A stretch of 64,000 bases of DNA, taken from positions 72,911-136,910 of the IMG/VR virus record IMGVR_UViG_3300036719_006047, one strand, 5' to 3'. Positions 23,622 through 56,239 of the stretch are shown one piece after another (position 1 is the first letter of the stretch; the number at the start of each line of letters is the position of its first letter). The notes beneath the pieces were generated by a model. That model was given only the letters and a program-made list of their open reading frames with translations, did not search any database and was not told the origin of the DNA. The DNA comes from a virus. The translations under genes and the position numbers were made by a program.

Positions 23622-23661
23622 TAAACCGCGAACGTCAGATTTTTAGAAAAGTTGCGATAAC

Positions 23662-24057
23662 GTATAATAGGATAAACAAACACAGTTATCGCGTGCACAT
23701 CGGTCAGAGAAACAAGGACCTCAGACACCCCACACGGGCCCTCGAACCACCAAACAGGACCCTCCTTCCCCTTGACGGACCTTGACTCTCTCACTACGAC
23801 AGAACTCGCAGGAACCTCTCCCGACAGACTCCCTTCACCAGGGCTATCTCGACGGAATTCAAGCTCTTTGACACTCCAAAACCTGCACCAGCAGCCCCAT
23901 CATGCATGAGTATAAGACGAATGCAGGGTGGGGCGCTTTTGTTTTCACAAACGAATATGAAAGTCGTTTTCAGTTGCTTCTTGAATTACTGTTGGAGGGA
24001 TACTGATTTCTCTGACCGACGTGCACGCGATAACTGTGTTCTGTTAATCGATTATAC
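23662..24057. repeat. Long inverted repeat (34 bp core, 33/34 match; 51 bp with 7 mismatches) enclosing about 295 nt
   Basis: 23679-23712 is the reverse complement of 24007-24040 except for one base; each arm starts with GTATAAT. Confidence 0.92.
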
Positions 24058-24288
24058 ATTAACGGGACTGAGAGCAGCCGTTTATCGGGACTGCGAAGAG
24101 AGCTGTGTCGCCGAAGTTGTCGGCAGCGAGCACAACGCAGAGAAGAGCTGTCGCTGGGAAGGAAATAACGAGATGGGCGGGAAACGCACTTTTCGAGGCC
24201 AATTTTCGTAAGTGTTAATGGCTATATGGGTATTACTTACCCGAGTAGGTCGTGTGCCACACGATAGCTCTCACGAAGAGGAGGGTGT

Positions 24289-24720
24289 ATGTACTTCAAC
24301 TACAACGTGGCTCCGGGAAGAATAACGATCGTGAAATGGTCGAGTGAATACTTGATCGGCTTCTCGGTTGTGTTCGCGCCGAACGAGAACAACGAGATCG
24401 TGTCGGACAAGGTCATCATTCAGGCAAAGCAAGAGTTGTACGGTTGGTGCGTGAATGGCTCGATGGTAAGCTACTGTGGGCTACACAATGTCACCAACCC
24501 GATAATGCTGGATGGGATGAACGCCCTGTCTCTGCCCAAAATCAAGAAACTCCAAAAGTTGTTTGAGCCCTCATTCCAAGGAGAGCGCTTCGTATTCATC
24601 GCGGAGTGCGGATTGCACAGCGAGCCAGAGTTGTTGTTCCAGTGTGAGATGAAGCCTCTCGTAATACAGAGGGGCATGTACAACGTAGAAAGACCAGTGA
24701 CTCCATTCAAGCCGAAGTGA
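24289..24720 (+). CDS. Hypothetical protein, first gene of the paralogue operon
   Basis: SD GAGGAGG; 143 aa. Confidence 0.75.
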   Translation: MYFNYNVAPGRITIVKWSSEYLIGFSVVFAPNENNEIVSDKVIIQAKQELYGWCVNGSMVSYCGLHNVTNPIMLDGMNALSLPKIKKLQKLFEPSFQGERFVFIAECGLHSEPELLFQCEMKPLVIQRGMYNVERPVTPFKPK

Positions 24721-24729
24721 GGGAATGCG

Positions 24730-25596
24730 ATGAGCAAGCACGTAGAGCACAAAATTCAGGTAGTCGAGTCGACTTACTACGCTCGCGGGGTGACGTTGTC
24801 GTTCACGACTGAGCTGTGGCGAAACGAGAGCAAATTCGATTCCGAGCATCTGCTCGAATTGTTCTCAAAAATAATCAGCATCGTCGTGAGAGAGCGCACC
24901 GAAGAAATGAACGACATCCAGCCCAGGCTGGGATGGCGCGCAAAGAGGTTGCGCTTCTGCTTGGATTTTGGGTGCAGCACAGGGCAAATCTACAAGTTCA
25001 ACTCGCTGGCGAAAGACATTCACACAATACACTCAGAGGAAGAAAGCAAAGCCGAAGAGGAGAGGTTGATTTTCATCCCAGGGAACCTGCCCGACGTGAT
25101 GAAGAACATGTCCGCAGGAGAGCTCATAGCGCACTCCATTGAATCGGTCGATGCGGTAGAAATCAGCGTCGACACTTTGCTCGATAAGTCGTTATACGCA
25201 GTCATCTACAATGCGACCGAGCTCAGCAAGTACCGGTCAAGTTCGATTTTGTCGAGCAAAGAAAGCATAGTCGAGGAAGTGAAAGCGGTCAGGTCCAAGA
25301 TCAAAGTCTACCAAGAGAGGCAGCGCCTCAACGCTTTCCGCGCTCCTGAGAAGATTAAGGTAGAGATAAGAAACAAGCTGAGATCGCTGACGAACAAGGC
25401 CGGGGGCACTTTCTACTACGCAGAGCACAACGCAAACGACATCAAAGTGAGACTGAAGCTGGTCGAAGAAATGCTCGAGAAGAGCGGCGTCAGCGAGGAG
25501 ATGAAGAGCAATGTGCAGGCTGCTTTGAAGCGCATAGAAGCAGTTCGCGCAGAGCTGAAGGCAGTCAAAGAACTTGTCGAGAAGGAGCTGCTGTGA
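24730..25596 (+). CDS. Paralogue family member 1 (WRN-motif, C-terminal coiled coil)
   Basis: LWRNESKFDSEHLL; SAGELIAHS. Confidence 0.8.
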   Translation: MSKHVEHKIQVVESTYYARGVTLSFTTELWRNESKFDSEHLLELFSKIISIVVRERTEEMNDIQPRLGWRAKRLRFCLDFGCSTGQIYKFNSLAKDIHTIHSEEESKAEEERLIFIPGNLPDVMKNMSAGELIAHSIESVDAVEISVDTLLDKSLYAVIYNATELSKYRSSSILSSKESIVEEVKAVRSKIKVYQERQRLNAFRAPEKIKVEIRNKLRSLTNKAGGTFYYAEHNANDIKVRLKLVEEMLEKSGVSEEMKSNVQAALKRIEAVRAELKAVKELVEKELL

Positions 25597-26501
25597 CTGA
25601 AAGGGCTGACACAACCATAGTTTCGAGAAGCTTCACGATAGGCAGGCCACAAAATACAAGAACAATTTGTTTCGAGGTGTGGCGAAACAGGAGCCTTTTC
25701 GACAGCGAGGACCTGCTGAGCATCCTTTGCGGGTACTACAGCAAGTTGCTGAACTGCACGTTCGACGCTGATTTCGACCCAGAAGGCGAAGCTGCTTTCC
25801 TGGCAGGCATGCCAGAAAAAGTAGTTGTAGGCGTAGTAGCGGACTGTGTGGCCAACAACCATGCAGGCATAATTGTAATCCGGTTTGGCGAACTCACTGA
25901 GGCCGTTGTAGCGGAGAGACAGCTGGTAGAAAAGTCGACAAAAATGTTCTTCTTGAGAGTTTCGCTGCCCGACCCTCGAACTTCCCTTTCCGCGAGCGAG
26001 CTGTTCGCTGCTTCCACAGAAGAGAACGAAAGTCTGGTACTCAGCTTGAAGCAGCTCGGGATAAAAAGTCTACTCGATGCGTCTTCTGTCAGCGTGACGA
26101 CGAGCATGCTGAACAAGACGTTCTTCTACCGATCAGAACTGAAAGAGAAGTTTACTCTGGTTGCGGAAGCTCTTCAGAAAGAAATACCTACCGTTGTCGT
26201 CCACGCCAAAAAGAGGAACGTAGATGCGTTCTGCAGTGCGAGCACGAAGAGCTCGATCGCAGAGAACAGGTGCAGGCAGCTGTGGGAGTCTTCAGGGCCT
26301 CTCATGAAAGCATCGCAAGCGATCAAGAATGCTGAATTTATGTGTCTCGAAACGCAGCGACTCGCAGAAAGAGCGATGGACGCAGGGTCGAGCTCAGACG
26401 CGGTCCACAAAGTGAAGCGAATATCGAGTGAGTTAGCAGAAATCCAAAAAAGAATAGACGAAATCATCAGCGAGGCAGAGAAAATCGAATGGCAATCGTG
26501 A
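25593..26501 (+). CDS. Paralogue family member 2
   Basis: VWRNRSLFDSEDLL; SASELFAAS. Confidence 0.8.
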   Translation: MTERADTTIVSRSFTIGRPQNTRTICFEVWRNRSLFDSEDLLSILCGYYSKLLNCTFDADFDPEGEAAFLAGMPEKVVVGVVADCVANNHAGIIVIRFGELTEAVVAERQLVEKSTKMFFLRVSLPDPRTSLSASELFAASTEENESLVLSLKQLGIKSLLDASSVSVTTSMLNKTFFYRSELKEKFTLVAEALQKEIPTVVVHAKKRNVDAFCSASTKSSIAENRCRQLWESSGPLMKASQAIKNAEFMCLETQRLAERAMDAGSSSDAVHKVKRISSELAEIQKRIDEIISEAEKIEWQS

Positions 26502-27457
26502 CAGCGAAGCAGCCTCTAGTGAGCGAGATTCGCTCGCTCCGAGAAGCAGGAGGCACAGGAAAAAAGATCAAGGTCAGCGTGTGGCGCAACACCACGATCT
26601 TTGACGCAGGCGATGTTGCTCGCCTTTGCGCGGCTGTGTCGATCTGTACACAAGAAAGCAATTACTTCATCCAAGAAGAGCCGCAAGAGTACAAGTTCGT
26701 CTTGCTCAACAAGAAGCAGGAGAGATTCTTTGCGGTGAGTGCCTTGCAAAACGTATCGCTAGCAAAAGTAGCTGCTTGCCCTGACATGACCTTAGAGTGG
26801 TGGTCCTCGCCTCCGGGAACCACAGGCAGTAAAGTGATCTACGCGTCGAATCAGCTGGCTCAGTCGTCTGCAGCAGAGATCGTTAGCCGAGAACTCGACT
26901 GCTCAGACCCGAAAAGGCCCTTGTTCAAGCTCACGCGAGAAGAGGTGGCTTGCGTTGTGGGAACGATGTATTACGACATTATTTCTGCCTTCGATTATCG
27001 GGAAATCAAAGACTGGCCCATCAGCAGCATAGCGAAAAAGGCATCTCCAATCCGGGAACTGTTCGGGAGAATGCGGCAAAGCGAAAAAGAGATCAACCCG
27101 AACCACCCCGTCATCGCGGGCGTGATCGATCAGATCGAGGAAATGCTGCATCCGCACCCGCTACAGCTGAGATTCGCGAAGAAGCCATTCTCTTTCAGCG
27201 TGTCCCCCGAGAGAGAAAAGCTCCAATTGCTGGAAACGAAGCTGGACAACAGGCGCTGTCGAATCATGACAGCACAAAGAAAGTTGGTTCGACTGATGAG
27301 CAGCAAAAAAGCATTCATTAGCGAACCCTGGGCGTCAGAGGGGTACGATGAAGTGTTGAAGAAGATCGAGCAGTCGTATGAACTGCTACGTGCAGCAGAG
27401 CATGAAATCAGGCTAATGACCGAAAAAGCATTCACCAAGAGGCTTGAAATCAAATGA
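26489..27457 (+). CDS. Paralogue family member 3
   Basis: VWRNTTIFDAGDVA; SAAEIVSR; LRFAKKPFSFSVSPERE. Confidence 0.8.
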   Translation: MAIVTAKQPLVSEIRSLREAGGTGKKIKVSVWRNTTIFDAGDVARLCAAVSICTQESNYFIQEEPQEYKFVLLNKKQERFFAVSALQNVSLAKVAACPDMTLEWWSSPPGTTGSKVIYASNQLAQSSAAEIVSRELDCSDPKRPLFKLTREEVACVVGTMYYDIISAFDYREIKDWPISSIAKKASPIRELFGRMRQSEKEINPNHPVIAGVIDQIEEMLHPHPLQLRFAKKPFSFSVSPEREKLQLLETKLDNRRCRIMTAQRKLVRLMSSKKAFISEPWASEGYDEVLKKIEQSYELLRAAEHEIRLMTEKAFTKRLEIK

Positions 27458-28419
27458 GCTACACTCCGAAAGACCCTGTCGTTGCTCCCATCCGTGTGGA
27501 GTTCACTCCCGGCCCGTCCTTCAGCGCGAAACCCAGAAAACAAGTGGGCTTCTTGTGGAAGAACACGTCGATTTTCCACAGCGAAGATCTGTTGCGTTTG
27601 TTGCTCATCGTAGGCGCGATCACAGATGAAGACTCTCACTACGAGAATCCGAAAGAAGAAAAACACTTCGTCTTTAGTACCGACACCAGCGCAAACTGGG
27701 TCAACATCGAGCGGCCTTGGCGCAGGAGTGAGCACATGTACGACGTGTCTCCTGTGATGAAAGAATTGTTGACGGAACAACGCTCAAGCAGCTACTACTG
27801 CAAGATCGTGATTGCCACCAATCACCCGGCCAAAGAGACCAGCGCGGAGCTCTTCTCCCGAACCATCGACAACAGCGACGGCAAGTCTTACTTCCTCCTT
27901 CGCGACGAAGAAGTGATCGAATTGGCCGTTTCTGTCGTTAACTCCATGTACAACAGGGCGTCTGCCGAACTGCAAGCTATTTTCCGGGAGACGTTCTTCG
28001 GAGGCGTAGACATCAACAGCTTCCACAGCAGAAAATACACTGTGCAGTCTGCGCGAGAGACGTGCGCAAAAAGAGTCGAAGAATTCATTCGCATGGCCTG
28101 CGATGACAAGATCCCGAAGATCAGGTTCAGCAACAAGCAGCTCTTCTTCAGCACTTCCCCCGACAGAGAGCGGCTCGGTGAGATGCAAAGAGCCTTCAAG
28201 ACGAAGGCGTACGATGTGAGAGCTGTGCGAAAAAAGTTGCTCAGCATCAAGAAGGTGTCAGAAAAGCAGCTCAAGATTGAGTTTGCAAAGGAAGCGAACG
28301 AAGCGGCAAGACAGCACTTGATCAAGGCGGCGGAAGAGTTGATGAAAGCGGAACAAGCGATGCAGCATGCGATTGACGAAGCTGCGAAGAACTACGACAG
28401 GATCTCGGAGGTCAAGTGA
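27454..28419 (+). CDS. Paralogue family member 4
   Basis: LWKNTSIFHSEDLL; SAELFSR; IRFSNKQLFFSTSPDRE. Confidence 0.8.
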   Translation: MSYTPKDPVVAPIRVEFTPGPSFSAKPRKQVGFLWKNTSIFHSEDLLRLLLIVGAITDEDSHYENPKEEKHFVFSTDTSANWVNIERPWRRSEHMYDVSPVMKELLTEQRSSSYYCKIVIATNHPAKETSAELFSRTIDNSDGKSYFLLRDEEVIELAVSVVNSMYNRASAELQAIFRETFFGGVDINSFHSRKYTVQSARETCAKRVEEFIRMACDDKIPKIRFSNKQLFFSTSPDRERLGEMQRAFKTKAYDVRAVRKKLLSIKKVSEKQLKIEFAKEANEAARQHLIKAAEELMKAEQAMQHAIDEAAKNYDRISEVK

Positions 28420-29357
28420 AGAAAACTAACCCACAATCAGCAGAGCACAAAGGCCACACAGCTTTCGTCTGGAAGAACAACTCCAACCTGTACGGGCCCG
28501 ACTTGGCGCGGTTCGTGTTAGGCGTCATGTCTGTGTCGAATGAGCGCAAGTGCAGAGAGAGCGAAGAGGACAAGGAAGTTCACTTGATCTTGTTGTCCTC
28601 GAAGAGGCTAAACAAGGTTCAAACCGTTGGCAGTTACAGCCCTCTGCTGACGAAAAAGATGGTCGCAAGCTGCCCCAACATGCTGTACATGCTTGAGGGG
28701 GCGGGTCAGTTGCACTTCAATCACAGGATCTTCCACGTTCCCGACAGGTACTCAGAAGAATCGCACTCACAGAAAATCACGAGAAGGATGAGCAAAGAAG
28801 GCAAGTTAGACCTCTTCAGCCTCAACGGAGAGGAAATCGTCGACATAGCCATAGCGGTATTGAAGTACAGTTGGAACAGCTTGCCGTATGAAGGCACAAA
28901 AGAATTTTGCGATACTCTTGGCGTAGCGGCAGACGTGATGGCTCGCCTTCTGAACATCTCATGCCTCGAAACGTACTTTTACGACAGAGAGGTAGTTGAG
29001 TTCAGGCAGAATCTGGGAGACAAACTCCTCGCAGAGTTCAATGTCACGCGCATCGAAGACATCAACCTCCGCTTCAGGTACCGCAAGTTCAGCTTCCACA
29101 CTTGCAGAGACAGGGAAAGAATCAAGGAAGAGAACCAAGTACTGCTCAAAGACTGGCAAAATTTGAAGCAGAGTGCGAAGTACATCAAAATCTGCATCGA
29201 AAGGAAGCTCAGCGCTTTTGCAGGAGCGGCTGCGATCGAGGAATTTGAAGCGTCAAAGCCATTGCTACAAGAAGCTTTGCTCAATCTCCACAAGGCTATG
29301 CAGGCCTACGAACTCACCAACAACAAACTCCGGGATGCCTACGATGCGACTCTCTGA
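28416..29357 (+). CDS. Paralogue family member 5
   Basis: VWKNNSNLYGPDLA; LRFRYRKFSFHTCRDRE. Confidence 0.8.
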   Translation: MKKTNPQSAEHKGHTAFVWKNNSNLYGPDLARFVLGVMSVSNERKCRESEEDKEVHLILLSSKRLNKVQTVGSYSPLLTKKMVASCPNMLYMLEGAGQLHFNHRIFHVPDRYSEESHSQKITRRMSKEGKLDLFSLNGEEIVDIAIAVLKYSWNSLPYEGTKEFCDTLGVAADVMARLLNISCLETYFYDREVVEFRQNLGDKLLAEFNVTRIEDINLRFRYRKFSFHTCRDRERIKEENQVLLKDWQNLKQSAKYIKICIERKLSAFAGAAAIEEFEASKPLLQEALLNLHKAMQAYELTNNKLRDAYDATL

Positions 29358-30459
29358 TCTGGCTGATGTCATCTTCTCCACTTGGAAGCACAACCCCACT
29401 CAGTCCATCTTCGTCATGGGGCCGCCCGGCATCGGCAAGACCTCTGTCGCGGCCGCCGTTGTGGATCGCATCCGAAAGTACAACACAGACAACAACGTCC
29501 AGGGCCCCGTCGTCTGCCACATCAAGGACCTGTCGTCTTCGTTGCCCGAAGACCTCAACGGTCTGCCGAAAACGGACGGCGAGGTGATGCGCTTCGTTCC
29601 CGACACCTGGCTCGCCGAGTGCTGCAACCCTGAAGCCTCCGGCATCCTCATCCTCGACGACCTGCCGGCAGCGACTGCTTCCATTCAGGTGGCAGCGCGT
29701 CAGCTCGTTCTCGACAAGCGCATCCACGAGCACAGGCTGTCCAGCAAAGTCATCGTTGTCGTAACTGGCAATCGTCGTGAGGACGCTTCTGCGGCCAAGA
29801 CACTCCCCGCTCACTTCCGCAACTCCGTGTTGACGCTCGAAGCTGAGGCGAACTTGGCGGACTGGACTTCGTGGATGCGCTCCAAGGACGCAGACCGCTC
29901 CGTGACGGACTTCCTGGCCTTCCGGCCGCAGCACTTCTCTCGGCTGCCCGTCAATGCCGACCAGCGCGGGGTGTTCGCAACGCCTCGTACCTGGAAGATG
30001 CTGTCCGACCTGATGCCGGTCGCTCTCGAGACCAAGAAGCTGTTCGAGATCAGCGCCGGTCTCGTTGGCGAGGGTGTGAGCGCGGAGTTCGTGGCCTTCA
30101 AGGACATGAGTGATGCGCTGCCTGACCCCAAAGCCGTGCTCGAAGACCCCTACAAGCACTACCCCAGCAACCACGACATCTGGTCCAACCGCCCCGACTT
30201 GATGGTTGCCGTGCTGTCGGGCATCTCGTACTACGCAGGCAAGGCCAAGAAGACAAAAGACTTTGTTCCTGTCGACGCTTACGTGAAGGCTGTTGCCTAC
30301 TTGTGTTCCCGGTCCACCGAGTACTTCGAGTTCGCTTTCCAGGCTTTCCGCGACAGTGGCGGTCGCGAAATGGCTTTCTTGACGGCCGCGCAGCAGCTGT
30401 CGACGACTGACTCGCGTGTGGCCCAGCTCAAGGCCAAGCTCCGTGAGGTGTTCGCGTGA
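29344..30459 (+). CDS. MoxR-like AAA+ ATPase, copy 1
   Basis: GPPGIGKT, LILDDL, VTGNR, PAHFRN and TPRTW motifs. Confidence 0.88.
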   Translation: MRLSDLADVIFSTWKHNPTQSIFVMGPPGIGKTSVAAAVVDRIRKYNTDNNVQGPVVCHIKDLSSSLPEDLNGLPKTDGEVMRFVPDTWLAECCNPEASGILILDDLPAATASIQVAARQLVLDKRIHEHRLSSKVIVVVTGNRREDASAAKTLPAHFRNSVLTLEAEANLADWTSWMRSKDADRSVTDFLAFRPQHFSRLPVNADQRGVFATPRTWKMLSDLMPVALETKKLFEISAGLVGEGVSAEFVAFKDMSDALPDPKAVLEDPYKHYPSNHDIWSNRPDLMVAVLSGISYYAGKAKKTKDFVPVDAYVKAVAYLCSRSTEYFEFAFQAFRDSGGREMAFLTAAQQLSTTDSRVAQLKAKLREVFA

Positions 30460-31628
30460 CTAGCAGAGAAGAGACTTTCGCTCGTTTCTCGAAGGCGAGA
30501 ACTTGGTTGATCGGCCGGATGCCTTTCTTCGGGCACCTGGCTCTCAACCTCAAGCTCGATCCTGTGGCCGGGGAAGATCAAGGAGTAGAAACGGCTTGCA
30601 TCTACCCGACGGGTGAACTCATCCTCAACGACAAGTTCGTCGCGTCGTTGACCGATGCTCACTTCAGGTTCGTTCTGGCCCACGAAGTGCTGCATCCAGC
30701 ATTGTTGTGCCATGTGCGCCGCAAGGGCAGAGATCATCTCGTCTTCAACATGGCGCACGACTACGCCATCAACTTGATCATCACAGAGGCAGTCGAAACG
30801 GCAAAAGAGCACAACAACTGCTGTATGCCGCTCAAAGGGCTCATCGATAACGCTTACAAAGGCCTTTCCGCAGAAGAAATCTACGACAAGCTGTTGGAGA
30901 AAGCAAGCATCGCTTATTACGCAAAAGGAGGCTTCGATCAAGACGTCGCAGAGAAAGAAGCCAAGACTGAGGACAAGGAGCAAGACAGCATCTGGAAAAT
31001 GCGTCTCGCGGCTGCGAGCGTAGCGGCTTCTCGCTCGAAGAGAGGCAACATTCCTGCCGGGTTGCAGAAGATCATACAAGAGATTTTGCAGCCCCAGGTG
31101 TACTGGCTTGATGTTCTCGCGGAGTACGTGTCGGGTTGTTTGGGCGGAGACATTTTCACTTACAGCAGGCTGAACCGCCGGTCAGAGGGCGCAGGATGCA
31201 TCCTGGCCGGAAAGATCAGCGATGAGATGCCCGAAGTGACAGTGTTGTGGGACACGAGCGGTTCGCAGCAGGGGTGGGAAGACACCGTTTTCGCGGAGCT
31301 GAAAAAGCTGCAAGATGACATGGCGGTGCCCTTCCGGCTCATGATCATCGATACCGTGTTGTACGCAGACATGATGGTAGACGACGTCGACGATACTCTT
31401 TCACAGCTCAAAGGTGGCGGCGGCTCCGACTTCAAACCCGCTTTCGAGAAGCTCGAGCAAGAGAACAACCAGTCAGTCGTCATCGCATTCACAGACGGCG
31501 CGATCGGTGTGCCAGAGACACCGCCACCGTTGCTCAAAGATGTCATCTGGGTGCTGACGGGACACTATTCGAGCCCCCCGGCACAGTACGGCCGCTCGAT
31601 CTACATCGAGAAAGGAAAGTCGAAATGA
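30456..31628 (+). CDS. DUF2201-type HExxH metallopeptidase-like plus vWA protein, copy 1
   Basis: LAHEVLH, NMAHDYAIN, WDTSGS, GGGGSDF and FTDG motifs. Confidence 0.88.
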   Translation: MTSREETFARFSKARTWLIGRMPFFGHLALNLKLDPVAGEDQGVETACIYPTGELILNDKFVASLTDAHFRFVLAHEVLHPALLCHVRRKGRDHLVFNMAHDYAINLIITEAVETAKEHNNCCMPLKGLIDNAYKGLSAEEIYDKLLEKASIAYYAKGGFDQDVAEKEAKTEDKEQDSIWKMRLAAASVAASRSKRGNIPAGLQKIIQEILQPQVYWLDVLAEYVSGCLGGDIFTYSRLNRRSEGAGCILAGKISDEMPEVTVLWDTSGSQQGWEDTVFAELKKLQDDMAVPFRLMIIDTVLYADMMVDDVDDTLSQLKGGGGSDFKPAFEKLEQENNQSVVIAFTDGAIGVPETPPPLLKDVIWVLTGHYSSPPAQYGRSIYIEKGKSK

Positions 31629-32413
31629 AAGAAGGCGATGCCATCACGCACTTCGACAACTCTTTGCTAAACCCAGAACTGGAGGGAAATCCGAAATACT
31701 GCTTCCGGATTCGAGTGATCGGCAACAACACAGAGCTGAGCACACAGCACGTAGAGAACACGGTCAACAACGCGCTGCGGCTTGCCTGCGAAGAAGACAA
31801 GCTGCCCGCTTCTGTGTCAGAGAAGCTTGAGCCGGTTTACACGCTGTTGGTGCTGAACCGGTTGAGACGAACAAGCAAGCGGGACTGGCAGTTGTCGCGG
31901 TTTGTTGAAAGCTGTCGCCTGTTCGCCAAGGTGAGCTCCATTTACGCCCTGAAACAGGTAAAGCCAAAAATGAGAGTGTCACCTGCTCTGTTTGTGTTGG
32001 ACGTGTTTGACGCATCAAAGGTCTTCAGCGCGTCAGAGCTGATCGCTTTTTCTTCTCCCACAGGACTTGTTGTCCCCGGTAGTGAGATTGCAGGGCTTGC
32101 GTCATACGTGCTGCAGAGGCTCGAAAACCCCGACGATGTCAGATTTAAGCGGCGAGATGAGATACTGGTCCGAGTGTGCGCGGAAGCTCTGATTGCGACA
32201 AGGAAGCCGAAGCAAGAAGGTGTAACCGCCAAAGAAGCAGTAGCACTCGGCAAGAAAATCGCAGCGCACCGCACTCGGCGGCTGAAGATGGAAAGGCTGC
32301 AGAAGAACTTGAGAGAAGCACAAAGAACCCTAGCAAAGCTGTCCCGAGATAGCCGCAACGATCTCAAGCAAGACATGAAAGACTTCTACACAAAGGGGAC
32401 TCGCAAGAGATGA
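31625..32413 (+). CDS. Paralogue family member 6 (most divergent)
   Basis: IGNNTELSTQHV; FSASELIAFS; C-terminal coiled coil. Confidence 0.7.
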   Translation: MKEGDAITHFDNSLLNPELEGNPKYCFRIRVIGNNTELSTQHVENTVNNALRLACEEDKLPASVSEKLEPVYTLLVLNRLRRTSKRDWQLSRFVESCRLFAKVSSIYALKQVKPKMRVSPALFVLDVFDASKVFSASELIAFSSPTGLVVPGSEIAGLASYVLQRLENPDDVRFKRRDEILVRVCAEALIATRKPKQEGVTAKEAVALGKKIAAHRTRRLKMERLQKNLREAQRTLAKLSRDSRNDLKQDMKDFYTKGTRKR

Positions 32414-32994
32414 ACGACCGCACGTACCGCTTCCCTCTGAAAAAAGGCGCGAAGCTCAAGGAAGACAACGGCTACGCTCTGTTGGCGGGATTGACCTCCA
32501 TCGCTCCGTTCCTTCACGGCAGGGAGAGTGTCCAGATCGCACCTATCGCGGGATCTCGCGTCAGCAGCGGTGTTCTCGTGACTGACGCACGAAGCAAACT
32601 GCAGGTGAGAGGCATCACCCGGGAAGAAGCTGAACTGCTCCAGAAAAAGACTTTTCACGTTTCGGGAGAGGAGGTTGAGACTGGCCTGTTCCAGGAGGTG
32701 AAGTTTGCGTTCTTCCCCTGCTTGGCTTCTCGCCTTGTGATCTTCCGAGATGTGTTCAGCAAAGAGCAGTTCATCGAGAAGGTCAAAGAAGTTGCAAGGT
32801 CAGGCGATGTGGAGCTGGGGCGCCGGAGAGTGTTGACTCTCAAGAACAACAGCATGATCGGCTTCAGCGTGGTTTTGAAAGGACTGAAAGAAGAAGATTC
32901 GATCCGACTTCAGGCGGAAGGGATGGGCAAGTTCACGTCGATGGGTTGCGGGGTGTTTCACCACTTCCGACCGAACAGCACTCAACTGCGATAA
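32410..32994 (+). CDS. cas6: Solitary CRISPR-associated endoribonuclease Cas6, type I-MYXAN (Cmx6)-like
   Basis: FPL...L..DNGYALL, LASRLVIF, GFSV.L.GL..EDSIRLQ.EGMGKFTSMGCGVF (Cas6 G-rich loop). Confidence 0.85.
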   Translation: MNDRTYRFPLKKGAKLKEDNGYALLAGLTSIAPFLHGRESVQIAPIAGSRVSSGVLVTDARSKLQVRGITREEAELLQKKTFHVSGEEVETGLFQEVKFAFFPCLASRLVIFRDVFSKEQFIEKVKEVARSGDVELGRRRVLTLKNNSMIGFSVVLKGLKEEDSIRLQAEGMGKFTSMGCGVFHHFRPNSTQLR

Positions 32995-33074
32995 GCGGCA
33001 GAGGTAGACGATGAAAATGAACTTTGATTGTGTGCCGGAAGAGATGCTGTAGCCCCTGCCTGGAGGAACTGGAA

Positions 33075-33686
33075 ATGAAGTCAGTCGCTCATCCGAAAAT
33101 CCGCACCATGTGTGAGATGGCTTGCCGGATTCGAGACATGTACGGGTACAAGTGGGTCTTGCACAAACCCAAGCACATCGAATGGCTGTTGTCCGACTCT
33201 CCCATCGGCCCATTTTCGCTCAAGTTGACGGGAAGAAAGAGGAGCAACTTTGTAGTGCTGTTATCGGCCGGTCCTTTCGACGGATGGACCGGAGGCAGCG
33301 AAACCTGCCCCGAAGAGCAAAAGTACTACGCAGCTCTGATCCACGAGATGAGCCACCTGACGCTCATGGATGGTTCTCCTGAAGACATGGGCACCGAAGA
33401 AGAAGGTGTCGTGCTCGAGACCGCGTGGCTTGATGCTTTGAGACCGACAAGGGAGATCAGAGCCGGGTACCGGGAGTACTCTATCGACAAAACAGAGATA
33501 GTCATAGACTACGAGAAGTGGGCCACCATGAACTACTCCGATATTCGAGGCCCGAAGAAGATGAAGTGGTGGGAGGAAGCACAGAAAATTTTGATCGAGA
33601 AAGGCGTCTTGACCAAAGGTGGCGCCCCGACCTGGAAGCGTACGAGGATGGGAGATGCCAAACACTCTGCCCGAAAATTGGTTTGA
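33075..33686 (+). CDS. HExxH zinc metallopeptidase-like protein
   Basis: ALIHEMSH followed by a downstream EE motif; SD GGAGG. Confidence 0.65.
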   Translation: MKSVAHPKIRTMCEMACRIRDMYGYKWVLHKPKHIEWLLSDSPIGPFSLKLTGRKRSNFVVLLSAGPFDGWTGGSETCPEEQKYYAALIHEMSHLTLMDGSPEDMGTEEEGVVLETAWLDALRPTREIRAGYREYSIDKTEIVIDYEKWATMNYSDIRGPKKMKWWEEAQKILIEKGVLTKGGAPTWKRTRMGDAKHSARKLV

Positions 33687-33921
33687 GGTAACACCAGCCT
33701 GCTACGAGTACAGGTGCTTTCCGTTCGATACGGACAAATACGGCAAACCGAAGCCGGGAACAGCATACCTCACTGTCGTTACGGTACAGAAGCGAGAAAA
33801 CTCTATCGAGGTCAGCATAGACTCTTTTTCCGGAGGCTACGCTGACGGAGCAGCCGCACTGTCGACAGAGATACCGTTAGAGATTATAAATCGCTTGATA
33901 GCAAGCAGACCGAAGGAGTGA
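33655..33921 (+). CDS. Hypothetical protein; 3' end lies inside direct repeat 1
   Basis: 88 aa ORF. Confidence 0.6.
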   Translation: MPNTLPENWFEVTPACYEYRCFPFDTDKYGKPKPGTAYLTVVTVQKRENSIEVSIDSFSGGYADGAAALSTEIPLEIINRLIASRPKE

Positions 33922-33961
33922 CCGCATGACCCGCTCCCTGATCCCTTTCCTGGCTGTCGTT
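33863..33961 (+). repeat. 99 bp direct repeat, copy 1
   Basis: 97/99 identical to 36062-36160; includes the SD AAGGAG and 12 codons of a signal peptide. Confidence 0.95.
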
Positions 33962-36013: not shown

Positions 36014-36061
36014 GGGATTTTGGTCAGCATATCCCCAGTCTGATTTCTCGCGCTGCCTTGG

Positions 36062-36160
36062 CGACAGAGATACCGTTAGAGATTATCAATCGCTTGATAG
36101 CAAGCAGACCGAAGGAGTGACCGCATGACCCGCTCCCTGTTCCCTTTCCTGGCTGTCGTT
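36062..36160 (+). repeat. 99 bp direct repeat, copy 2
   Basis: Matches 33863-33961 with 2 substitutions. Confidence 0.95.
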
Positions 36161-41564: not shown

Positions 41565-41848
41565 ACGCGGCAGAGAAAGTCGCCAAGATCAGAGAAGCGC
41601 AAAAAGATCTATTCCTACAGGAGATGCGGATCAGGGCAGAGATCGAATGGGTAATCAACGAGGAGTTTGGGGCAGAGTACGAATCGTTGGTTTCCTTGGC
41701 CCACATGCAACAAGGAGTTTTGCTCGGAGCGAACAAGATAACTATTTTCTTGTCTACGGGACCCCCTTTAGCTTCGCAGGAAATCCTCCAGCAAAAGATG
41801 AAGAATGTTGAGCAGAAGACTGGAATTCCAACAGTACTTGGGCTGTGA
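41561..41848 (+). CDS. Hypothetical protein
   Basis: SD AGGAG; GTGA overlap. Confidence 0.6.
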   Translation: MNAAEKVAKIREAQKDLFLQEMRIRAEIEWVINEEFGAEYESLVSLAHMQQGVLLGANKITIFLSTGPPLASQEILQQKMKNVEQKTGIPTVLGL

Positions 41849-41888
41849 CCACGACTGAACCGCAAACACAATAGGCAGGAAGAAAGTT

Positions 41889-42272
41889 ATGCCGATCTAC
41901 GTGTGTTCTGATGGCAATGGTGTGCTCGAGATCGAGGCGGATAGCGGGGAAGCAGCCGCCCATGATTACGTCGACGGAGGCGAGTGGGGCCACAACAACA
42001 AAACCTTCTGGATCAACGTCCGCGTCACCGAGAAGGGCACCAACGACACTGAGCTTCACAAGATCGAAGTGGAACCCGAGGAGCCCGAGTGTGAGGACGG
42101 CAACGATCACCACTGGCGTGAGGTTTCGATGAGGGGCAACGCAGGCGGCGTGATTACCACGTCTCGTTGTGTGCATTGTGGCAAGGAAGTGACAGTGAAC
42201 ACCTGGGATTACGATCCGCAAGATGGACAGCAAGCACTTTGCAGCGTCGAGTACGGGATGCAGGAATGCTGA
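41889..42272 (+). CDS. Hypothetical protein with Zn-ribbon-like C..H..CVHC
   Basis: 127 aa. Confidence 0.7.
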   Translation: MPIYVCSDGNGVLEIEADSGEAAAHDYVDGGEWGHNNKTFWINVRVTEKGTNDTELHKIEVEPEEPECEDGNDHHWREVSMRGNAGGVITTSRCVHCGKEVTVNTWDYDPQDGQQALCSVEYGMQEC

Positions 42273-42835
42273 TCGCTTTCTCTGGTAAGAAGGGAGCAGG
42301 CAAGGACACTTGTGCGGTCATCCTCGACTTCATCGCAAAGTCGGAAGGGATGCAGACCTACACTGTTGGCTTTGCTGATGCGATGAAGAGCATTCTCGGC
42401 ATGATCTTCCGGGTGAACCCAAAGATCTTTTACGACAACAAGGACACGCCCAACGAAAGCCTCAAAGGCAAGACGCCCAGAGGTGTGCTGATCTCTTTCG
42501 CCAAGTGGGTGCGGGAGACCAAGGACGACGCTTGGGTGTCTCACGTGCAAGTGGCACTTGAGAGTTTGGGTGGTCCTGACAAGCTCAATATGGTGACGGA
42601 CTTGAGGCACGTCATCGAATACGAGGCTCTTCGAGGCAAAGGAGCCATCCTCGTTCGAGTCATCCGTCCTGGCACGGAGAACGAAGACGACATCTCAGAG
42701 ACCGCGCTCGACGACCACGAGTTCGACTACGTCGTCTACAACAACGGCACAATCTTAGACCTCACGAAGACTCTCCAGAAGTTGTGGCAGGACATCAAAG
42801 ACAAGGAGCAGGAACATGCACTTTCTTTCTCCTGA
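42266..42835 (+). CDS. Deoxynucleoside monophosphate kinase
   Basis: IAFSGKKGAGKDT, FADAMK, VTDLR..EY and SETALD motifs. Confidence 0.88.
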   Translation: MLIAFSGKKGAGKDTCAVILDFIAKSEGMQTYTVGFADAMKSILGMIFRVNPKIFYDNKDTPNESLKGKTPRGVLISFAKWVRETKDDAWVSHVQVALESLGGPDKLNMVTDLRHVIEYEALRGKGAILVRVIRPGTENEDDISETALDDHEFDYVVYNNGTILDLTKTLQKLWQDIKDKEQEHALSFS

Positions 42836-43904
42836 AGAGATTATGGAAAAGTTCGGCGGCACCTTTTCCGCTTCGGAGAAGAAAAGCTTCTGGAAGTGGC
42901 GTGAAGAAGGAAATCAGTTTTTGCAGCCCTTCACAGAGAGGATCGTGCGCTCGCAGCAAATGGGTTTCCCTCGGTCTGCCGACAGCGTGCTGCGTGATTG
43001 GCGAGAGAGCATGCCGCGACCCGATAATGGGTACGCGGAAGCTCGCTTCAAGCGATGGCCGGACTACGCGAAGGACTGCCAAAGAGCAGTCGTCTTGAGA
43101 TCTGCCGAGCACTACGACAAAACACATTGCATAGGCTTTGTGACGGCCGACGGCAACGTGAAGCATGAAGTCTTCTTCTGCAAGAAATCAGGAAGACACT
43201 GGAACCGAAAACTCGGTCATTCCAAGCATCACGCTTGGCTCGACGTAGAAGCAACCAGAAGGAATATCACAACCGAGGAAAGGACGACGCAGGAAAGGCG
43301 GAGCTTCTTCGATCTGTTCCCGTCTGCGTGTTCTCGAGAAATCAAGTTCAAAGCCCTTCATTCCTTGGGCGGGTGGGCTTGTTTTCTTCCGACGGACGAA
43401 GGCATGGCCATCGAGGGTGGATTCTTGCCTTGCCCAGAGCCACACAGGCCCAAGGGTGTTTATCTCTACCAGCTACGAAGCAAGAAGTACGCGAGAAGCA
43501 ATGAGTTCAACGAGATGCTGTGGGGCTGGCGGTACGCTTCGCCTGAGATCACAGAAGAAGAGCTCAAAGCTGCCTCGCTGTTCCGCCCTCCCACACCAGA
43601 GCAGGAAAGAGCAGAGTTTTACACCCGAGGGCAACTGGAAGAGCTTGCGACCAAGCTCGGAGTTGAAGCCGCGGTCAACGCGAATGGTTGGTTGCAGTTG
43701 ACGTGGAAAGGCATTTACGGCAAGTACATCTTGGGCGTTGTTGTGGACGGCAAGACTCACCTAACGGAAGAAAGAGAAGTGCTTGACCTGCTCGAGAAAG
43801 AGTTGAACGCTTCTACCGAAAAAGCGAAAGCCGACATCGCCAAGTTGCAGGAAGGTCTTTCTGGTGACCTGAGTTTGCTCGAAAAGATTCGATCTTTGCG
43901 TTAG
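42816..43904 (+). CDS. Hypothetical protein
   Basis: SD AGGAG; 362 aa. Confidence 0.75.
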   Translation: MHFLSPEEIMEKFGGTFSASEKKSFWKWREEGNQFLQPFTERIVRSQQMGFPRSADSVLRDWRESMPRPDNGYAEARFKRWPDYAKDCQRAVVLRSAEHYDKTHCIGFVTADGNVKHEVFFCKKSGRHWNRKLGHSKHHAWLDVEATRRNITTEERTTQERRSFFDLFPSACSREIKFKALHSLGGWACFLPTDEGMAIEGGFLPCPEPHRPKGVYLYQLRSKKYARSNEFNEMLWGWRYASPEITEEELKAASLFRPPTPEQERAEFYTRGQLEELATKLGVEAAVNANGWLQLTWKGIYGKYILGVVVDGKTHLTEEREVLDLLEKELNASTEKAKADIAKLQEGLSGDLSLLEKIRSLR

Positions 43905-43929
43905 TCTGTACGAGCACTCTGGAGGTCCC

Positions 43930-44172
43930 GTGGCGAAAGCGAACTACATCTTCCTCTTGGAACGTCTCGAAGGGGGGACGTGGGATTCAGTGTACGAAGT
44001 AGTCGCAATCGGACCAGACGAAGAGACTGTTCGTGAGATGGTGCTCGAAAAGTTTGATTACGACCCAAGCAGGTGGCCCACCTGGGAAAGCGGTGTCGAG
44101 GTGAAGAAAGTCGGAATCGCCTTCCCAGGTGAGGGGCCTCGCATACTCACCTACTACCAAACGCATGGATGA
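43930..44172 (+). CDS. Hypothetical protein
   Basis: SD GGAGG. Confidence 0.65.
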   Translation: MAKANYIFLLERLEGGTWDSVYEVVAIGPDEETVREMVLEKFDYDPSRWPTWESGVEVKKVGIAFPGEGPRILTYYQTHG

Positions 44173-44698
44173 AACAATGGCAAAGTACAAGTTCACGATC
44201 GAGATTGACGAAGAGATGCTTCAGCTGATGCTCGAAGCGCTCGAGTTCTACGAGCGTGTCGTGGGGCTCGGGCAGATCGAAGAGGTCGGTTACGCCTACA
44301 GGATCAAAAAGAAACTCACGACTTCTTGGACAGAGCACAACGAGAGGATGAAGATCGCGGATCTCGCGCTCGACACGTTCAAGATGGCCGTTGTCGGAAT
44401 GCCGCGGAACCAAAGCCACGGTATCTACAGCCCCGAGGTGAACGACAACATCAAGAAGATGTACGACATGTACAAGACCTTGCGCAAGAGCCTTGCAGAG
44501 TCCCGATTGCGCGAGGCGATCGAAGCAGGGAACACAGAAACTGCCAACCACTTGAGGATGACGGTAGACATGCAAGGCTTCAGCGGCGTCTACTTCTCAG
44601 AGCCGCCCGTGCATGTCAGTTTCGTGCCCATGGCGCAAGAATCTCAGGCCGAGCCCGAAGAGGTGAACGATGCAACTCCCGAAGAAGTCGAACCTTGA
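44165..44698 (+). CDS. Hypothetical protein
   Basis: 177 aa, overlapped start. Confidence 0.7.
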   Translation: MDETMAKYKFTIEIDEEMLQLMLEALEFYERVVGLGQIEEVGYAYRIKKKLTTSWTEHNERMKIADLALDTFKMAVVGMPRNQSHGIYSPEVNDNIKKMYDMYKTLRKSLAESRLREAIEAGNTETANHLRMTVDMQGFSGVYFSEPPVHVSFVPMAQESQAEPEEVNDATPEEVEP

Positions 44699-44915
44699 CG
44701 CTTACGTGCTTCGAGGCCGAGATCCAAACCAGTTAGACGCTTCCTTTTGGGAGGGACAAGAAGCAGCAAAGAACGCGCTCAAGCCATTCCGAGATGTTCG
44801 GTATGAGCTTCTGAGAGTGCAGGTAAACGACAACGTGGTTTGGGCTCTCGACCAAGTGTGGGTCACACTACCCACAGGCAAAGTCAACTACATTCCCGAG
44901 GTGGATGATGCGTGA
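44670..44915 (+). CDS. Hypothetical protein
   Basis: SD GAGG; 81 aa. Confidence 0.55.
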   Translation: MQLPKKSNLDAYVLRGRDPNQLDASFWEGQEAAKNALKPFRDVRYELLRVQVNDNVVWALDQVWVTLPTGKVNYIPEVDDA

Positions 44916-45099
44916 CGACGATATGAAGTTTCAGGATCCGGGCGGTCGCTCTGCTCTGCGCCGGGCAAGCAAGAGCAATCCGAGAAAGTATCCTTGTCCG
45001 ACCTGCAAACAGCCTGACCGACTGACCCCTGCGGATGTTCGGCTTGGTTACCAGTGCGATACTTGTGCAGACAAGTTGGAGATGGGATGGGACTACTGA
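44905..45099 (+). CDS. Small zinc-finger protein
   Basis: CPTC...CDTC. Confidence 0.7.
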   Translation: MMRDDDMKFQDPGGRSALRRASKSNPRKYPCPTCKQPDRLTPADVRLGYQCDTCADKLEMGWDY

Positions 45100-46543: not shown

Positions 46544-47366
46544 GATCTACACCCCCATTCTGTGGTCTTCGTGGTACATGCACAAGCAGATGTTCGCGGA
46601 AGGTGAGGAGAAGGTCAAGGCTCTTTTCGCGGAAAAGAAGCACGAACGGGACAACTTCCACTTCTCGTTCGGAAGTCGCAACAAGTTCATGCTGTCCAGT
46701 CACTCTGACGGCTACGGCGGAGACGGACTTGTGGTGCTGCTTTCGTACAGCAAACCAGAAGCGGGTCGAGGCCAAACGCACAGCCACTCGTGCTACATCA
46801 ACATCAAGCTGGCTGTGAGGAGGAAGAAGAAAGGCAAGGACGCAATGCCCACGAACGAAGAGACTTTCACCACTATCTTCGAGGGGCGAGAGGCTGTCAG
46901 CATAGAGACGATGTTTAGTGCTGCGGCAGGAGAAAAGAGCGCGAACGACACGCGCATCTTGCTGAAGTTTGTGGGTATGAACAAGAATCTGGACGATTGG
47001 GATGAAATCATCCAGAACCCGTTTCCTTCCTCCTTGTTCGACGTAAACTTGTCCAGAAAGGACGCAGAAAGGCTGTGCATTATGCTGCTTAGCCCAGACC
47101 AAAGCACATTCCACACAGGCAAAGAGCTGGCGAAAGTCTACCCCGGCTTGTCTGCACTCTTCTACGTGAACGATATCATGACAGAGGAAATGAACTACTC
47201 TTGGGGCAGCCGAGATGACTGGAGCCGCGTGAACAAATACTTCGCCAAGCCGGCGGACGGAGTTGTTGACGCTTCGAAAGCGTTCGGTTCGATCTACGCG
47301 GAGTGCATTGAAGCCATGTTTGCATGCAAGAAATTGCGTAGGCTGTATAACCCTAAGACGAAATAG
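46536..47366 (+). CDS. Hypothetical protein
   Basis: SD GAGGGG; 276 aa. Confidence 0.75.
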   Translation: MDEIYTPILWSSWYMHKQMFAEGEEKVKALFAEKKHERDNFHFSFGSRNKFMLSSHSDGYGGDGLVVLLSYSKPEAGRGQTHSHSCYINIKLAVRRKKKGKDAMPTNEETFTTIFEGREAVSIETMFSAAAGEKSANDTRILLKFVGMNKNLDDWDEIIQNPFPSSLFDVNLSRKDAERLCIMLLSPDQSTFHTGKELAKVYPGLSALFYVNDIMTEEMNYSWGSRDDWSRVNKYFAKPADGVVDASKAFGSIYAECIEAMFACKKLRRLYNPKTK

Positions 47367-47441
47367 CATCGGCCAACCAGCTTGACTCCCCGTGACGCAG
47401 AGTTAGAATTCTCACGCCCACTTTCGGGCCGTGAGGAAGAT

Positions 47442-47717
47442 ATGTCTAGCTTGCAAATCCAGTTCCCGATGAGCCCAAAGATCGATCGGGAAGACAACGA
47501 GTACTTTATCGGTTCCGCCCACGGACCCTTCACCGTGGACTTGAGCAACGCAACGTTCCTCTTCTTCCCTCCCGTCGACGACGATCCCAAGTCTCGCGGG
47601 ACCTTGCTCATTCGGCCGAGCAACTACGTGAACCGCCACAAAGTCAAAGATGATCGCCCGAACGAGCAGTCGAACTGGGCTGACGACGACAGAGACGGGG
47701 ATCGCGATCGTGATTGA
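47442..47717 (+). CDS. Hypothetical protein
   Basis: SD GAGGA. Confidence 0.6.
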   Translation: MSSLQIQFPMSPKIDREDNEYFIGSAHGPFTVDLSNATFLFFPPVDDDPKSRGTLLIRPSNYVNRHKVKDDRPNEQSNWADDDRDGDRDRD

Positions 47718-47744
47718 TTGACCCGAAAATTGTTTGACAGCAGT

Positions 47745-47781
47745 CACCCCCGAAGGACGCTTGCAGGCGCCTTCGGGGGTG
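47745..47781 (+). terminator. Strong intergenic hairpin
   Basis: CACCCCCGAAGG...CCTTCGGGGGTG 12 bp stem. Confidence 0.65.
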
Positions 47782-47815
47782 TAGCTTTACCTACAACGCA
47801 AGAGGGCTACAGAGA

Positions 47816-48169
47816 ATGCACAAGGAAAAGTTCGACATCGTCTTCATCCACACCAAGAACGCAGGCGAGATGACGATCGCCCGGTCGTTTCGGTCGAGCA
47901 GAGCTGCTACCGAGGTGTGGTTCCCCTCGAAGAAGATCAGAGCCGCCATCAAGAAGGTGATGAACAAGAAGTCCGACATCAAGAACGTGAAGAATGTTGT
48001 CTTTTCAAACATCTCTTCGGACGACTTGTTCGAGATCATTCGACTGCTCGGTGGCCTCGACGATAGCATGCACGAAGACGGTCAGCTTCCTGCAGGCTGC
48101 ATCAGCACAAAGCTGACCGAGCTTGAGCTCATCGCGAAAAACTACGACTTCGCGCTGTCGCTTGTGTAG
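47816..48169 (+). CDS. Hypothetical protein
   Basis: 117 aa. Confidence 0.65.
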   Translation: MHKEKFDIVFIHTKNAGEMTIARSFRSSRAATEVWFPSKKIRAAIKKVMNKKSDIKNVKNVVFSNISSDDLFEIIRLLGGLDDSMHEDGQLPAGCISTKLTELELIAKNYDFALSLV

Positions 48170-48171
48170 AC

Positions 48172-48681
48172 ATGATCACAGTTCTAGGAGAACACACACT
48201 GAAACTGGACGGGCAAGACGTAGTGCTCGTCGAGCTGAAAGATGAGACGACGGGGGCAATCTCTTTCGTAACCAAGTATCCGGTGACGAGAGACTTGTTT
48301 CCTGCGATTGAACCAAGCGGGAAAGCCAGCGAAGCCCTGCAAATCGAGGAGAGGAACTTCAACTTAGGCACGACAGAAGCTGTGATCGAAGAGGTTGCGA
48401 AGCAAGATCCTATCCTTTCGCACTACCAGTACCCCGAGAGAACAGACCACCTGCTCCGAGCGGTAAGCGAAGACAGTGGTCTGAGAGCATCTTTGCTCTC
48501 GAGCAGCTTGCTGAAAAAGATGTTTTTGACCGAGAGGATGTTCGGAAACGATCTTGTCTTGTCCCATGAAGTTGCGTTCAAAGAGAACAGATTGCCATTC
48601 CGTCTGAGCCACGCAACACAGAGTGTTTGCGGAGTGCTCTTTATCCCCTGCAACATCCCTGTCCTAGTGAGGAAGTCATGA
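48172..48681 (+). CDS. Hypothetical protein
   Basis: 169 aa. Confidence 0.65.
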   Translation: MITVLGEHTLKLDGQDVVLVELKDETTGAISFVTKYPVTRDLFPAIEPSGKASEALQIEERNFNLGTTEAVIEEVAKQDPILSHYQYPERTDHLLRAVSEDSGLRASLLSSSLLKKMFLTERMFGNDLVLSHEVAFKENRLPFRLSHATQSVCGVLFIPCNIPVLVRKS

Positions 48682-51546: not shown

Positions 51547-51719
51547 CAGAAAAAACAGAGTCTGTCATTCCGTTCGACTTTGACGTGAAAACTGATTCAG
51601 AACCGCTTCGCGTCGAGTTCGACGTGATGGGAATCAATACGGATTGTGCCGTGAACTTTGTTTACTTGGTTTTCGAAGATACGCAAAAACTCAGAAATGC
51701 TCTGGAGAAAAAGTCATGA
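51543..51719 (+). CDS. Small hypothetical protein (58 aa, below the ORF-track cut-off)
   Basis: GTGA overlap at the start and ATGA overlap at the end. Confidence 0.6.
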   Translation: MTEKTESVIPFDFDVKTDSEPLRVEFDVMGINTDCAVNFVYLVFEDTQKLRNALEKKS

Positions 51720-53406: not shown

Positions 53407-53421
53407 TTTGTTCGTGTGTTC

Positions 53422-53436: not shown

Positions 53437-53456
53437 CAAAATGACGGGAAGTATCA

Positions 53457-56232: not shown

Positions 56233-56239
56233 GCCAAAG

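Follow-up and report, generated by a model that had tools for sequence, protein, structure and literature searches.

Why a large lake phage should carry a single gene for the processing of CRISPR RNA is the question raised by the stretch of DNA analyzed here. This stretch ("the window") is the final 64 kb of the 136,910-bp IMG/VR record IMGVR_UViG_3300036719_006047, a linear sequence which CheckV estimates to be about 85% complete. On its plus strand, at positions 32410-32994, the window contains a complete open reading frame (ORF) of 194 amino acids, cas6, whose product belongs to the Cmx6 (type I-B, "I-MYXAN") family of Cas6 proteins. The best explanation of the sequence comparisons is that the gene derives from a CRISPR-linked type I-B cas6, which would have been captured by a large freshwater phage and kept as an orphan. 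Regarding its function, action on host CRISPR RNA (crRNA), probably as a cas-derived anti-CRISPR, is the explanation tentatively favored, with a little less than even confidence.

Family, fold and key residues of the phage Cas6

The phage protein is a true and intact Cas6 of the Cmx6 branch, the branch serving type I-B ("I-MYXAN") CRISPR-Cas systems. It matched the Pfam family PF09559 ("Cas6 Crispr") with an E-value of 2.9e-32 and 112.7 bits (cut-off 26.7) over profile positions 8-187 of 191, and the NCBIfam family TIGR02807 cas6_cmx6 ("type I-MYXAN Cas6/Cmx6") with 103.6 bits, which is above the curated equivalog cut-off of 98.85; several PADLOC Cas6 models also matched (E 2e-33). An AlphaFold2 model built from 12 relatives reached a mean predicted local distance difference test (pLDDT) score of 88.6 and a predicted template modeling (TM) score (pTM) of 0.81, and it has the double ferredoxin-like (RAMP) fold of Cas6. 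The top Foldseek matches of this model were 8fcu_B (TM 0.84) and 8fcj_B (TM 0.83), with classical Cas6 and Cas6e structures ranking next. A sequence-profile search of the PDB led to the same protein, the Cas6 of a type I-B CRISPR-associated transposon (CAST; 8FCJ/8FCU chain B), with an E-value of 1.9e-29. An earlier reading of the window, made from the sequence alone (the sequence-only reading), had recognized a complete Cas6 by its glycine-rich loop GMGKFTSMGCG (residues 171-181, positions 32920-32952, plus strand), and the PF09559, TIGR02807 and PADLOC matches agree with the model in bearing this out; G171, G173 and G181 of the loop are conserved among relatives.

The CAST Cas6 resembles the phage protein in family and fold (TM 0.84, 28-29% identity), in the motif DNGY, in a conserved histidine after helix 1 and in the possession of a glycine-rich loop. 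The loop itself differs, being of a cyanobacterial type in the CAST protein and KFTSMGCG in the phage protein. Straight after the loop, members of the phage clade carry two histidines (GCGVFHHF; residues 184-185, nucleotides 32959-32964), where position 185 is proline in 104 of the 150 aligned sequences and position 184 mainly valine, tyrosine or leucine. This pair might change the RNA-binding face.

The N-terminal motif of the phage protein reads D19-N20-G21-Y22 (positions 32464-32475, plus strand) in place of the family majority DHGY. From this substitution the sequence-only reading had derived the possibility of a binding-only Cas6, that is, a decoy which, having lost cleavage with the histidine, would sequester pre-crRNA or displace the host Cas6. 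An exhaustive search for relatives gave 567 matches at E <= 0.001, and the motif was compared in an alignment of 150 sequences (the query and 149 listed relatives of 150-260 amino acids). At position 20, histidine was found in 109 sequences (73%), so that the sequence-only reading was right to call DHGY typical of the family; asparagine and serine occurred in 11 each, cysteine and tyrosine in four each and glycine in three. Among the 31 closest representatives (at least 36% identity) there were 13 with histidine, seven with serine, six with asparagine and three with cysteine, and among the most distant relatives (below 30% identity) histidine occurred in 62 of 70 (89%). Judging from this alignment, the residue at position 20 depends on the clade, and histidine is no defining feature of the subclade to which the phage protein belongs. 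DNGY is likewise the motif of the Cas6 subunit in the Cascade structure solved for the type I-B CAST. Because relatives encoded in type I-B cas operons carry asparagine, serine or cysteine at this position and the solved CAST Cascade carries asparagine, the asparagine of DNGY is an ordinary subclade variant and apparently not an inactivating change. A compensating histidine was sought in the relatives that have no His20, and clade markers were all that was found.

The residues which are near-invariant in the 150 aligned sequences are His36 (147), Arg67 (146) and Tyr22 (137), and the phage protein has kept all three. Of 47 conserved columns in the family, it carries the consensus residue in 39, Y22, H36 and R67 among them, and it has also retained the arginine-rich strand and the glycine-rich loop. 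In the AlphaFold2 model Tyr22 starts helix 1 (residues 21-31) and His36 (in PFLHG; positions 32515-32517, plus strand) comes after it; the catalytic role proposed for His36 is based on its conservation and on this place in the fold. We take this arrangement of Tyr22 and His36 to be comparable to the active site of Pyrococcus furiosus Cas6 (Tyr31/His46). Since Tyr22, His36, Arg67, the arginine-rich strand and the glycine loop are kept, binding of a repeat-like RNA hairpin is most likely and its cutting probable. The phage Cas6 looks catalytically competent rather than binding-only, and its sequence gives no ground for calling it cleavage-dead.

The decoy is very improbable in the light of these comparisons. 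The predominance of histidine at position 20, above all in the distant part of the family, is in line with it, as is the retention of asparagine in all variants of the phage clade. However, within the subclade of the phage protein asparagine, serine, cysteine and glycine are all common at position 20, both His36 and Tyr22 have been preserved, and asparagine, serine or cysteine is found in relatives from type I-B cas operons, three of four of which are accompanied by downstream repeats. The motif DNGY itself occurs in two of these CRISPR-linked Cmx6 proteins (L004 and L002, described below) as well as in 8FCJ/8FCU chain B. As far as genomic context and the solved complex show, asparagine is thus largely to be regarded as common in active Cmx6 proteins, and the step from asparagine to a binding-only protein is not supported.

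Orphan status, relatives and maintenance of the gene

Among the gene products of the record are a DNA polymerase of phage type, helicases, a primase, ParB-like and rIIA-like proteins and nine clustered tRNAs. Capsid and terminase genes were not identified in it, and its assignment to a virus therefore rests on the replication-type genes, the rIIA-like gene, the tRNAs and IMG/VR. The cas6 gene lies 31 kb from the contig end. The sequence-only reading had seen no other cas gene and no array in 64 kb, an observation that holds for the window and for the whole record. Tandem- and direct-repeat searches of the window detected no CRISPR array, and neither did a k-mer spacing scan of the whole record, where nothing but tRNAs, pentapeptide-type repeats in coding sequence and an iteron-like cluster rich in ACGTG came up; the CRISPR-DR families of Rfam matched nowhere in the record. 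Pfam models for Cas7/DevR, Cas5, Cas1, Cas4, generic RAMP proteins and classical Cas6 had no match in the record, the Cas3, Cas8, Cas7 and Cas5 proteins of a related type I-B locus had none among all of its six-frame ORFs (best E 0.096), and PADLOC reported no Cas protein among ten operon neighbors. Repeats from arrays beside related Cas6 genes matched the phage genome at chance level (best 24/36 versus shuffle maxima of 21-24), the window lacks TTGGCAAC, which forms the 3' end of related repeats, and the spacers of related loci had no match to the phage. Finally, no repeat-like RNA gene, by which RNA anti-CRISPRs and solitary repeat units are recognized, was found in the record. The 136.9-kb record contains no CRISPR-Cas system of type I-B, effector genes and array both being absent; the missing 15% or so of the genome may hold an array, which is a caveat to the orphan status.

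The gene has the features by which Katz et al. (bioRxiv 10.1101/2023.06.24.545427) recognize orphan viral cas genes, namely homology to a cas gene and a place on a viral genome, with neither an array nor a cas operon in the vicinity, and a position away from the contig end. Their Table S3 lists IMGVR_UViG_3300036719_006047 (Lake Mendota) with a cas6 match at 105341-105868, among about 13 cas6/cas6e entries of which several come from freshwater viruses. In record coordinates the gene studied here spans 105320-105904 and its Pfam match 105353-105871. The entry is very probably this gene, which hence has already been catalogued as a candidate orphan viral cas gene.

The incompleteness of the record also bears on the idea that the phage Cas6 supports CRISPR immunity, by maturing crRNAs from an array in the unsequenced part or from host or orphan arrays, whereby the host Cascade would be directed against competing phages or other mobile elements. 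Virus-borne mini-arrays which rely on host Cas proteins have been documented (review PMC8616872), Katz et al. suggest that cas genes taken up by viruses may at first stimulate immunity (bioRxiv 10.1101/2023.06.24.545427), and the protein appears catalytically intact from its conserved residues. Yet no array, solitary repeat or CRISPR-DR match occurs in 136.9 kb, and a type I-B host already owns a Cas6, so that the benefit is not obvious. We regard such a helper role as distinctly unlikely.

Four metagenomic relatives with readable DNA (36-40% identity) were all found directly after cas5 in type I-B operons, three of them with repeats downstream. The gene order is Cas3-Cas8-Cas7-Cas5-Cas6 followed by repeats in L004 (motif DNGY) and Cas5-Cas6 on the short contig L002 (DNGY), L003 (DSGY) has a full operon and a 10-repeat array, and in L005 (DCGY) Cas7-Cas5-Cas6 is followed by one repeat. 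The repeat types of L003, L004 and L005 end in TTGGCAAC / TTTGCAAC. The single repeat of L005 lies at 10750-10790, and a second copy is absent within 4 kb.

The closest cellular relatives are just 39-44% identical to the phage Cas6, and the capture was therefore not recent. In a FastTree phylogeny the phage clade (support 0.999) is nested in a 53-tip clade of the same subfamily, the tree leaving the sister group unresolved. A scan of the GTDB representative genomes with the alignment of relatives gave no match, and one with an FGE-sulfatase protein of the phage as host probe gave matches of 31-49% over many phyla and no host call. Regarding viral relatives, none were returned by scans of IMG/VR with the Cas6 protein, with a 12-sequence alignment or with the neighboring DUF2201 protein, no Cas6 match was found in 50,697 GenBank phage records, and BFVD contained no structural relative of the phage Cas6. 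The ESM Atlas holds a PF09559 cluster in which Uroviricota is the commonest labeled taxon.

In lake water the gene is recurrent. DNA that is identical, or practically so, was found in lake-water metagenomes under 20 separate study codes released 2020-2024, and the 90% cluster of the protein comprises ten variants, with the exact protein of the phage on 31 contigs. Phage-clade variants that share 95% and 87% identity with the protein have the full length. Every full-length variant retains the loop as well as N20, Y22 and H36, and the differences are mainly conservative (V/I/T, K/R, S/T/A, L/I). The substitutions avoid family-conserved columns only weakly (5 of 47 versus 31 of 147, p = 0.13). 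Contigs from four lake runs equal the window except for one difference, which lies outside cas6 and is uninformative on selection. No RNA dataset was present among the listed sequencing runs that hold the phage DNA. From the pattern of variants, cas6 seems to be maintained and not decaying. That it is a recent passenger without function in the phage is highly improbable: its uniqueness among the GenBank phage records and the lack of close relatives in the IMG/VR scans would fit a passenger, but the frame is full length with all family-invariant residues kept, the 87-95% identical variants show mainly conservative changes, an identity of 39-44% to any cellular relative makes the capture old, and a 4-nt overlap embeds the gene in an operon.

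Some further repeats and genes of the record were noted during these scans. All CRISPR-like k-mer spacing signals came from a long gene run of 15-nt (pentapeptide-type) repeats at about 47,000-61,000 of the genome (L008). Dense short repeats of the ACGTG / CGTGTCGCACGTGA type lie upstream of a primase-like gene (L009 4035-4320, genome about 63,435-63,720), and this cluster resembles iterons or an origin region. The 1,601-amino-acid DNA polymerase (phrog_17; L006 11776-16581, minus strand) matches PhoH, ribonucleotide reductase and thymidylate synthase PHROGs over residues ~359-513, the pattern that would be expected from an intein insertion.

A possible action on host CRISPR RNA

The explanation tentatively favored, a captured type I-B Cas6 acting on host crRNA, would work as follows. 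The phage Cas6 would bind, and probably cut, a CRISPR-repeat-like RNA hairpin, and because no repeat-like substrate is encoded on the phage record, host pre-crRNA is its most likely target. The protein could then occupy the host repeats, or cut them and stay bound. A 3' handle capped by a foreign Cas6 would be unable to nucleate a working host Cascade, and CRISPR interference would thereby be lowered.

Three precedents make such an inhibitory outcome plausible. Firstly, Cas5-, Cas8b- and Cas3-like phage proteins are proven anti-CRISPRs, acting through the assembly of defective Cascades or through sequestration of crRNA, and from IMG/VR 358 orphan viral cas genes have been put forward as anti-CRISPR candidates (bioRxiv 10.1101/2023.06.24.545427). 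Secondly, type I-B interference in Thermus thermophilus is suppressed by a non-cognate Cas6 that binds Cas5 as well as mature crRNA and acts as a competitor while Cascade assembles (PMC12102369). Thirdly, Cas6 proteins of mobile CAST elements are able to use heterologous host repeats (PMC11300857).

The likeness to each of the known systems has its limits. The proven cas-derived anti-CRISPRs of Katz et al. (AcrIB3, Cas5-like; AcrIB4, Cas8b-like; AcrVIA2, Cas3-like) share with the phage gene the situation of a cas homologue on a virus without array or cas operon, and in the logic of these authors a faulty or foreign subunit is supplied or crRNA is sequestered (bioRxiv 10.1101/2023.06.24.545427). 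The cas6 genes of their list are candidates, however, in contrast to the proven Cas5-, Cas8b- and Cas3-like examples, and no known acr or aca gene was recognized beside the phage cas6 in the Pfam, PHROG and PADLOC comparisons. The Cas6-2 of T. thermophilus HB27 (type III-associated; PMC12102369) is an active non-cognate Cas6 which lowers type I-B activity, the mechanism proposed here for the phage protein; it belongs to the classical Cas6 family and is encoded by the host as a regulator, whereas the phage Cas6 is viral and of Cmx6 type. RNA anti-CRISPRs and solitary repeat units (Camara-Wilpert et al. 2023, PMC10651486) are a phage attack on the Cas6-repeat step of class 1 systems, but the phages concerned carry repeat RNA and not protein, whereas the present phage has a Cas6 protein and no repeat-like sequence was found in its record. 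The CAST Cas6 forms part of a complete, crRNA-containing Cascade, whereas the phage protein has neither Cascade partners nor an array on its record.

Activity within the family is best illustrated by the Cas6b of Synechocystis sp. PCC 6714 (type I-B, formerly I-MYXAN, Cmx8; plasmid pSYLB), which is annotated as Cas6/Cmx6 and shares 27% full-length identity with the phage protein. Co-expressed with its array in Escherichia coli, it yields a crRNA of 71 nt within a Cascade that has a single copy of Cas6b (PMC11096372), and because of this result the Cmx6-type family can be said to mature crRNA. It differs from the phage protein in its motif, DHNY with the histidine present as opposed to DNGY, and in its setting in a cas6-cas3-cmx8-cas7-cas5-cas4/1-cas2 locus as opposed to a lone gene.

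Several points weigh against an anti-CRISPR role. The gene does not appear to be set in a typical anti-defense islet, in which small genes accompany an Aca-type regulator. Translational coupling ties it into a long string of unknown genes together with a MoxR-like ATPase and a von Willebrand factor A (vWA) protein, and this coupling suggests that it may work with its neighbors. No experimentally demonstrated Cas6-derived anti-CRISPR was found in the accessible literature. No host was identified, and no cognate host type I-B system or repeat could be tied to the phage. A phylum-wide search for donor and host covered 1,504 sampled genomes of Myxococcota, Planctomycetota, Verrucomicrobiota and Acidobacteriota, and the highest identity it returned was 31-34%, below that of the metagenomic relatives. 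At 39-44% identity to the nearest CRISPR-linked relatives, the RNA specificity of the protein may also have shifted.

The gene string around cas6

The cas6 gene is part of a tightly packed same-strand string of genes, a putative operon of 9.6 kb judging from the ORF layout (positions 24289-33921, plus strand). The string comprises a 143-amino-acid ORF, five proteins of about 300 amino acids of unknown family, an AAA+ ATPase, a DUF2201/vWA protein, a 262-amino-acid protein, Cas6 and a 203-amino-acid HExxH protein. The AAA+ (MoxR-like) ATPase (phrog_1297) is encoded at 29173-30459 and the DUF2201 protein with putative metallopeptidase and vWA-like domains (phrog_1314) at 30456-31628, both on the plus strand. 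The gene directly upstream of cas6 (31625-32413, plus strand) encodes the 262-amino-acid protein, which had no Pfam, PADLOC or PHROG match; its Atlas model is poor (pLDDT 0.44), and a search with it in the Atlas gave chance-level matches only. Its stop codon overlaps the start codon of cas6 in the sequence ATGA (32410-32413, plus strand), in agreement with the translational coupling named by the sequence-only reading. Downstream, at 33075-33686 on the plus strand, follows the gene for the 203-amino-acid protein, which has the HExxH motif HEMSH and no Pfam match. Promoter-like and terminator-like sites within the string were no more frequent than in shuffled sequences, and the folding of the 80-nt spacer that follows cas6 is not better than that of its shuffled versions (z = -1.5). 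No helix-turn-helix or Aca-like match and no other informative Pfam, PHROG or PADLOC match was obtained for the neighbors, in a comparison that contained no anti-CRISPR library. Just upstream of the string, at 23650-24069, lies an inverted-repeat control locus.

The arrangement in which a phrog_1297 AAA+ ATPase is followed by a phrog_1314 DUF2201/vWA protein occurs three times in the phage genome, at 29173-31628 and 48627-51040 of the window and at 41843-45076 of the genome (L008 2243-5473), and two of the three ATPase genes have a 63-nt stretch with 92% identity in common. A direct repeat of 102 nt with 97% identity is located at 33860-33961 and 36059-36160 of the window and takes in the final ~60 nt of a coding region, a ribosome-binding site (GGAG) and the initial codons of a signal peptide (MTRSL.PFLAVV). 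Its copies flank a 2.2-kb segment with a GC content of about 0.60 (versus 0.50-0.53) that contains a gene with an FGE-sulfatase domain and a membrane-protein gene, and that looks like a cassette inserted or duplicated via recombination. Elsewhere, at L009 5367-6626 (genome 64,767-66,024), three structured leaders of about 180 nt, 86-91% identical and with nested hairpins, each terminate in a ribosome-binding site plus ATGACC, ahead of a gene that differs from copy to copy; the cluster of nine tRNAs follows at L009 7611-8693.

This context gives rise to the explanation that Cas6 may function within the gene string of the phage itself, where it would process or hold phage RNA with no involvement of host CRISPR. 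Its partners would be six paralogous proteins of about 300 amino acids, the MoxR-like ATPase, the vWA/DUF2201 protein and the HExxH protein, and it could either cut the polycistronic transcript or the structured leaders, or be the RNA-binding subunit of an undescribed phage system. The ATGA coupling to the upstream gene and the dense packing on one strand suggest that it is co-expressed with its neighbors, which show no known anti-CRISPR features and offer no recognizable acr/aca context, and structured RNA-like repeats do exist in this phage (the three leaders and the control locus at 23650-24069). On the other hand, no repeated short hairpin resembling a Cas6 substrate was found in or beside the string, the spacer after cas6 is not unusually structured, and the dispersed repeats of the genome are unlike the repeats of related type I-B loci. 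The score above the cut-off for the CRISPR-type Cmx6 equivalog, together with the fact that the nearest relatives are all cas-operon genes, argues in the same direction, and a role in the string, the main rival to an action on host crRNA, is considered doubtful. Its more specific form, in which Cas6 would be the RNA-handling subunit of an undescribed multi-protein phage system and thus a viral recruitment of the Cmx6 fold outside CRISPR, is unlikely.

The wider idea of the sequence-only reading, that of a Cas6-derived anti-CRISPR or else of an RNA-hairpin enzyme reused by the phage, is plausible and fits the published concept of orphan viral cas genes (bioRxiv 10.1101/2023.06.24.545427). The phage gene is a well-documented member of an already catalogued class, the orphan viral cas genes, with a Cas6 of Cmx6 type, and it is set in an unusual MoxR/vWA operon context. 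For the annotation of the Cmx6 family it carries the warning that the histidine of DHGY is an unreliable marker of activity, His36 being the conserved one. If the phage protein does block or take over the maturation of type I-B crRNA in the host, it would be the first Cas6-derived anti-CRISPR, and the cas-derived inhibitors, so far Cas5-, Cas8b- and Cas3-like, would be extended to the crRNA-processing step.

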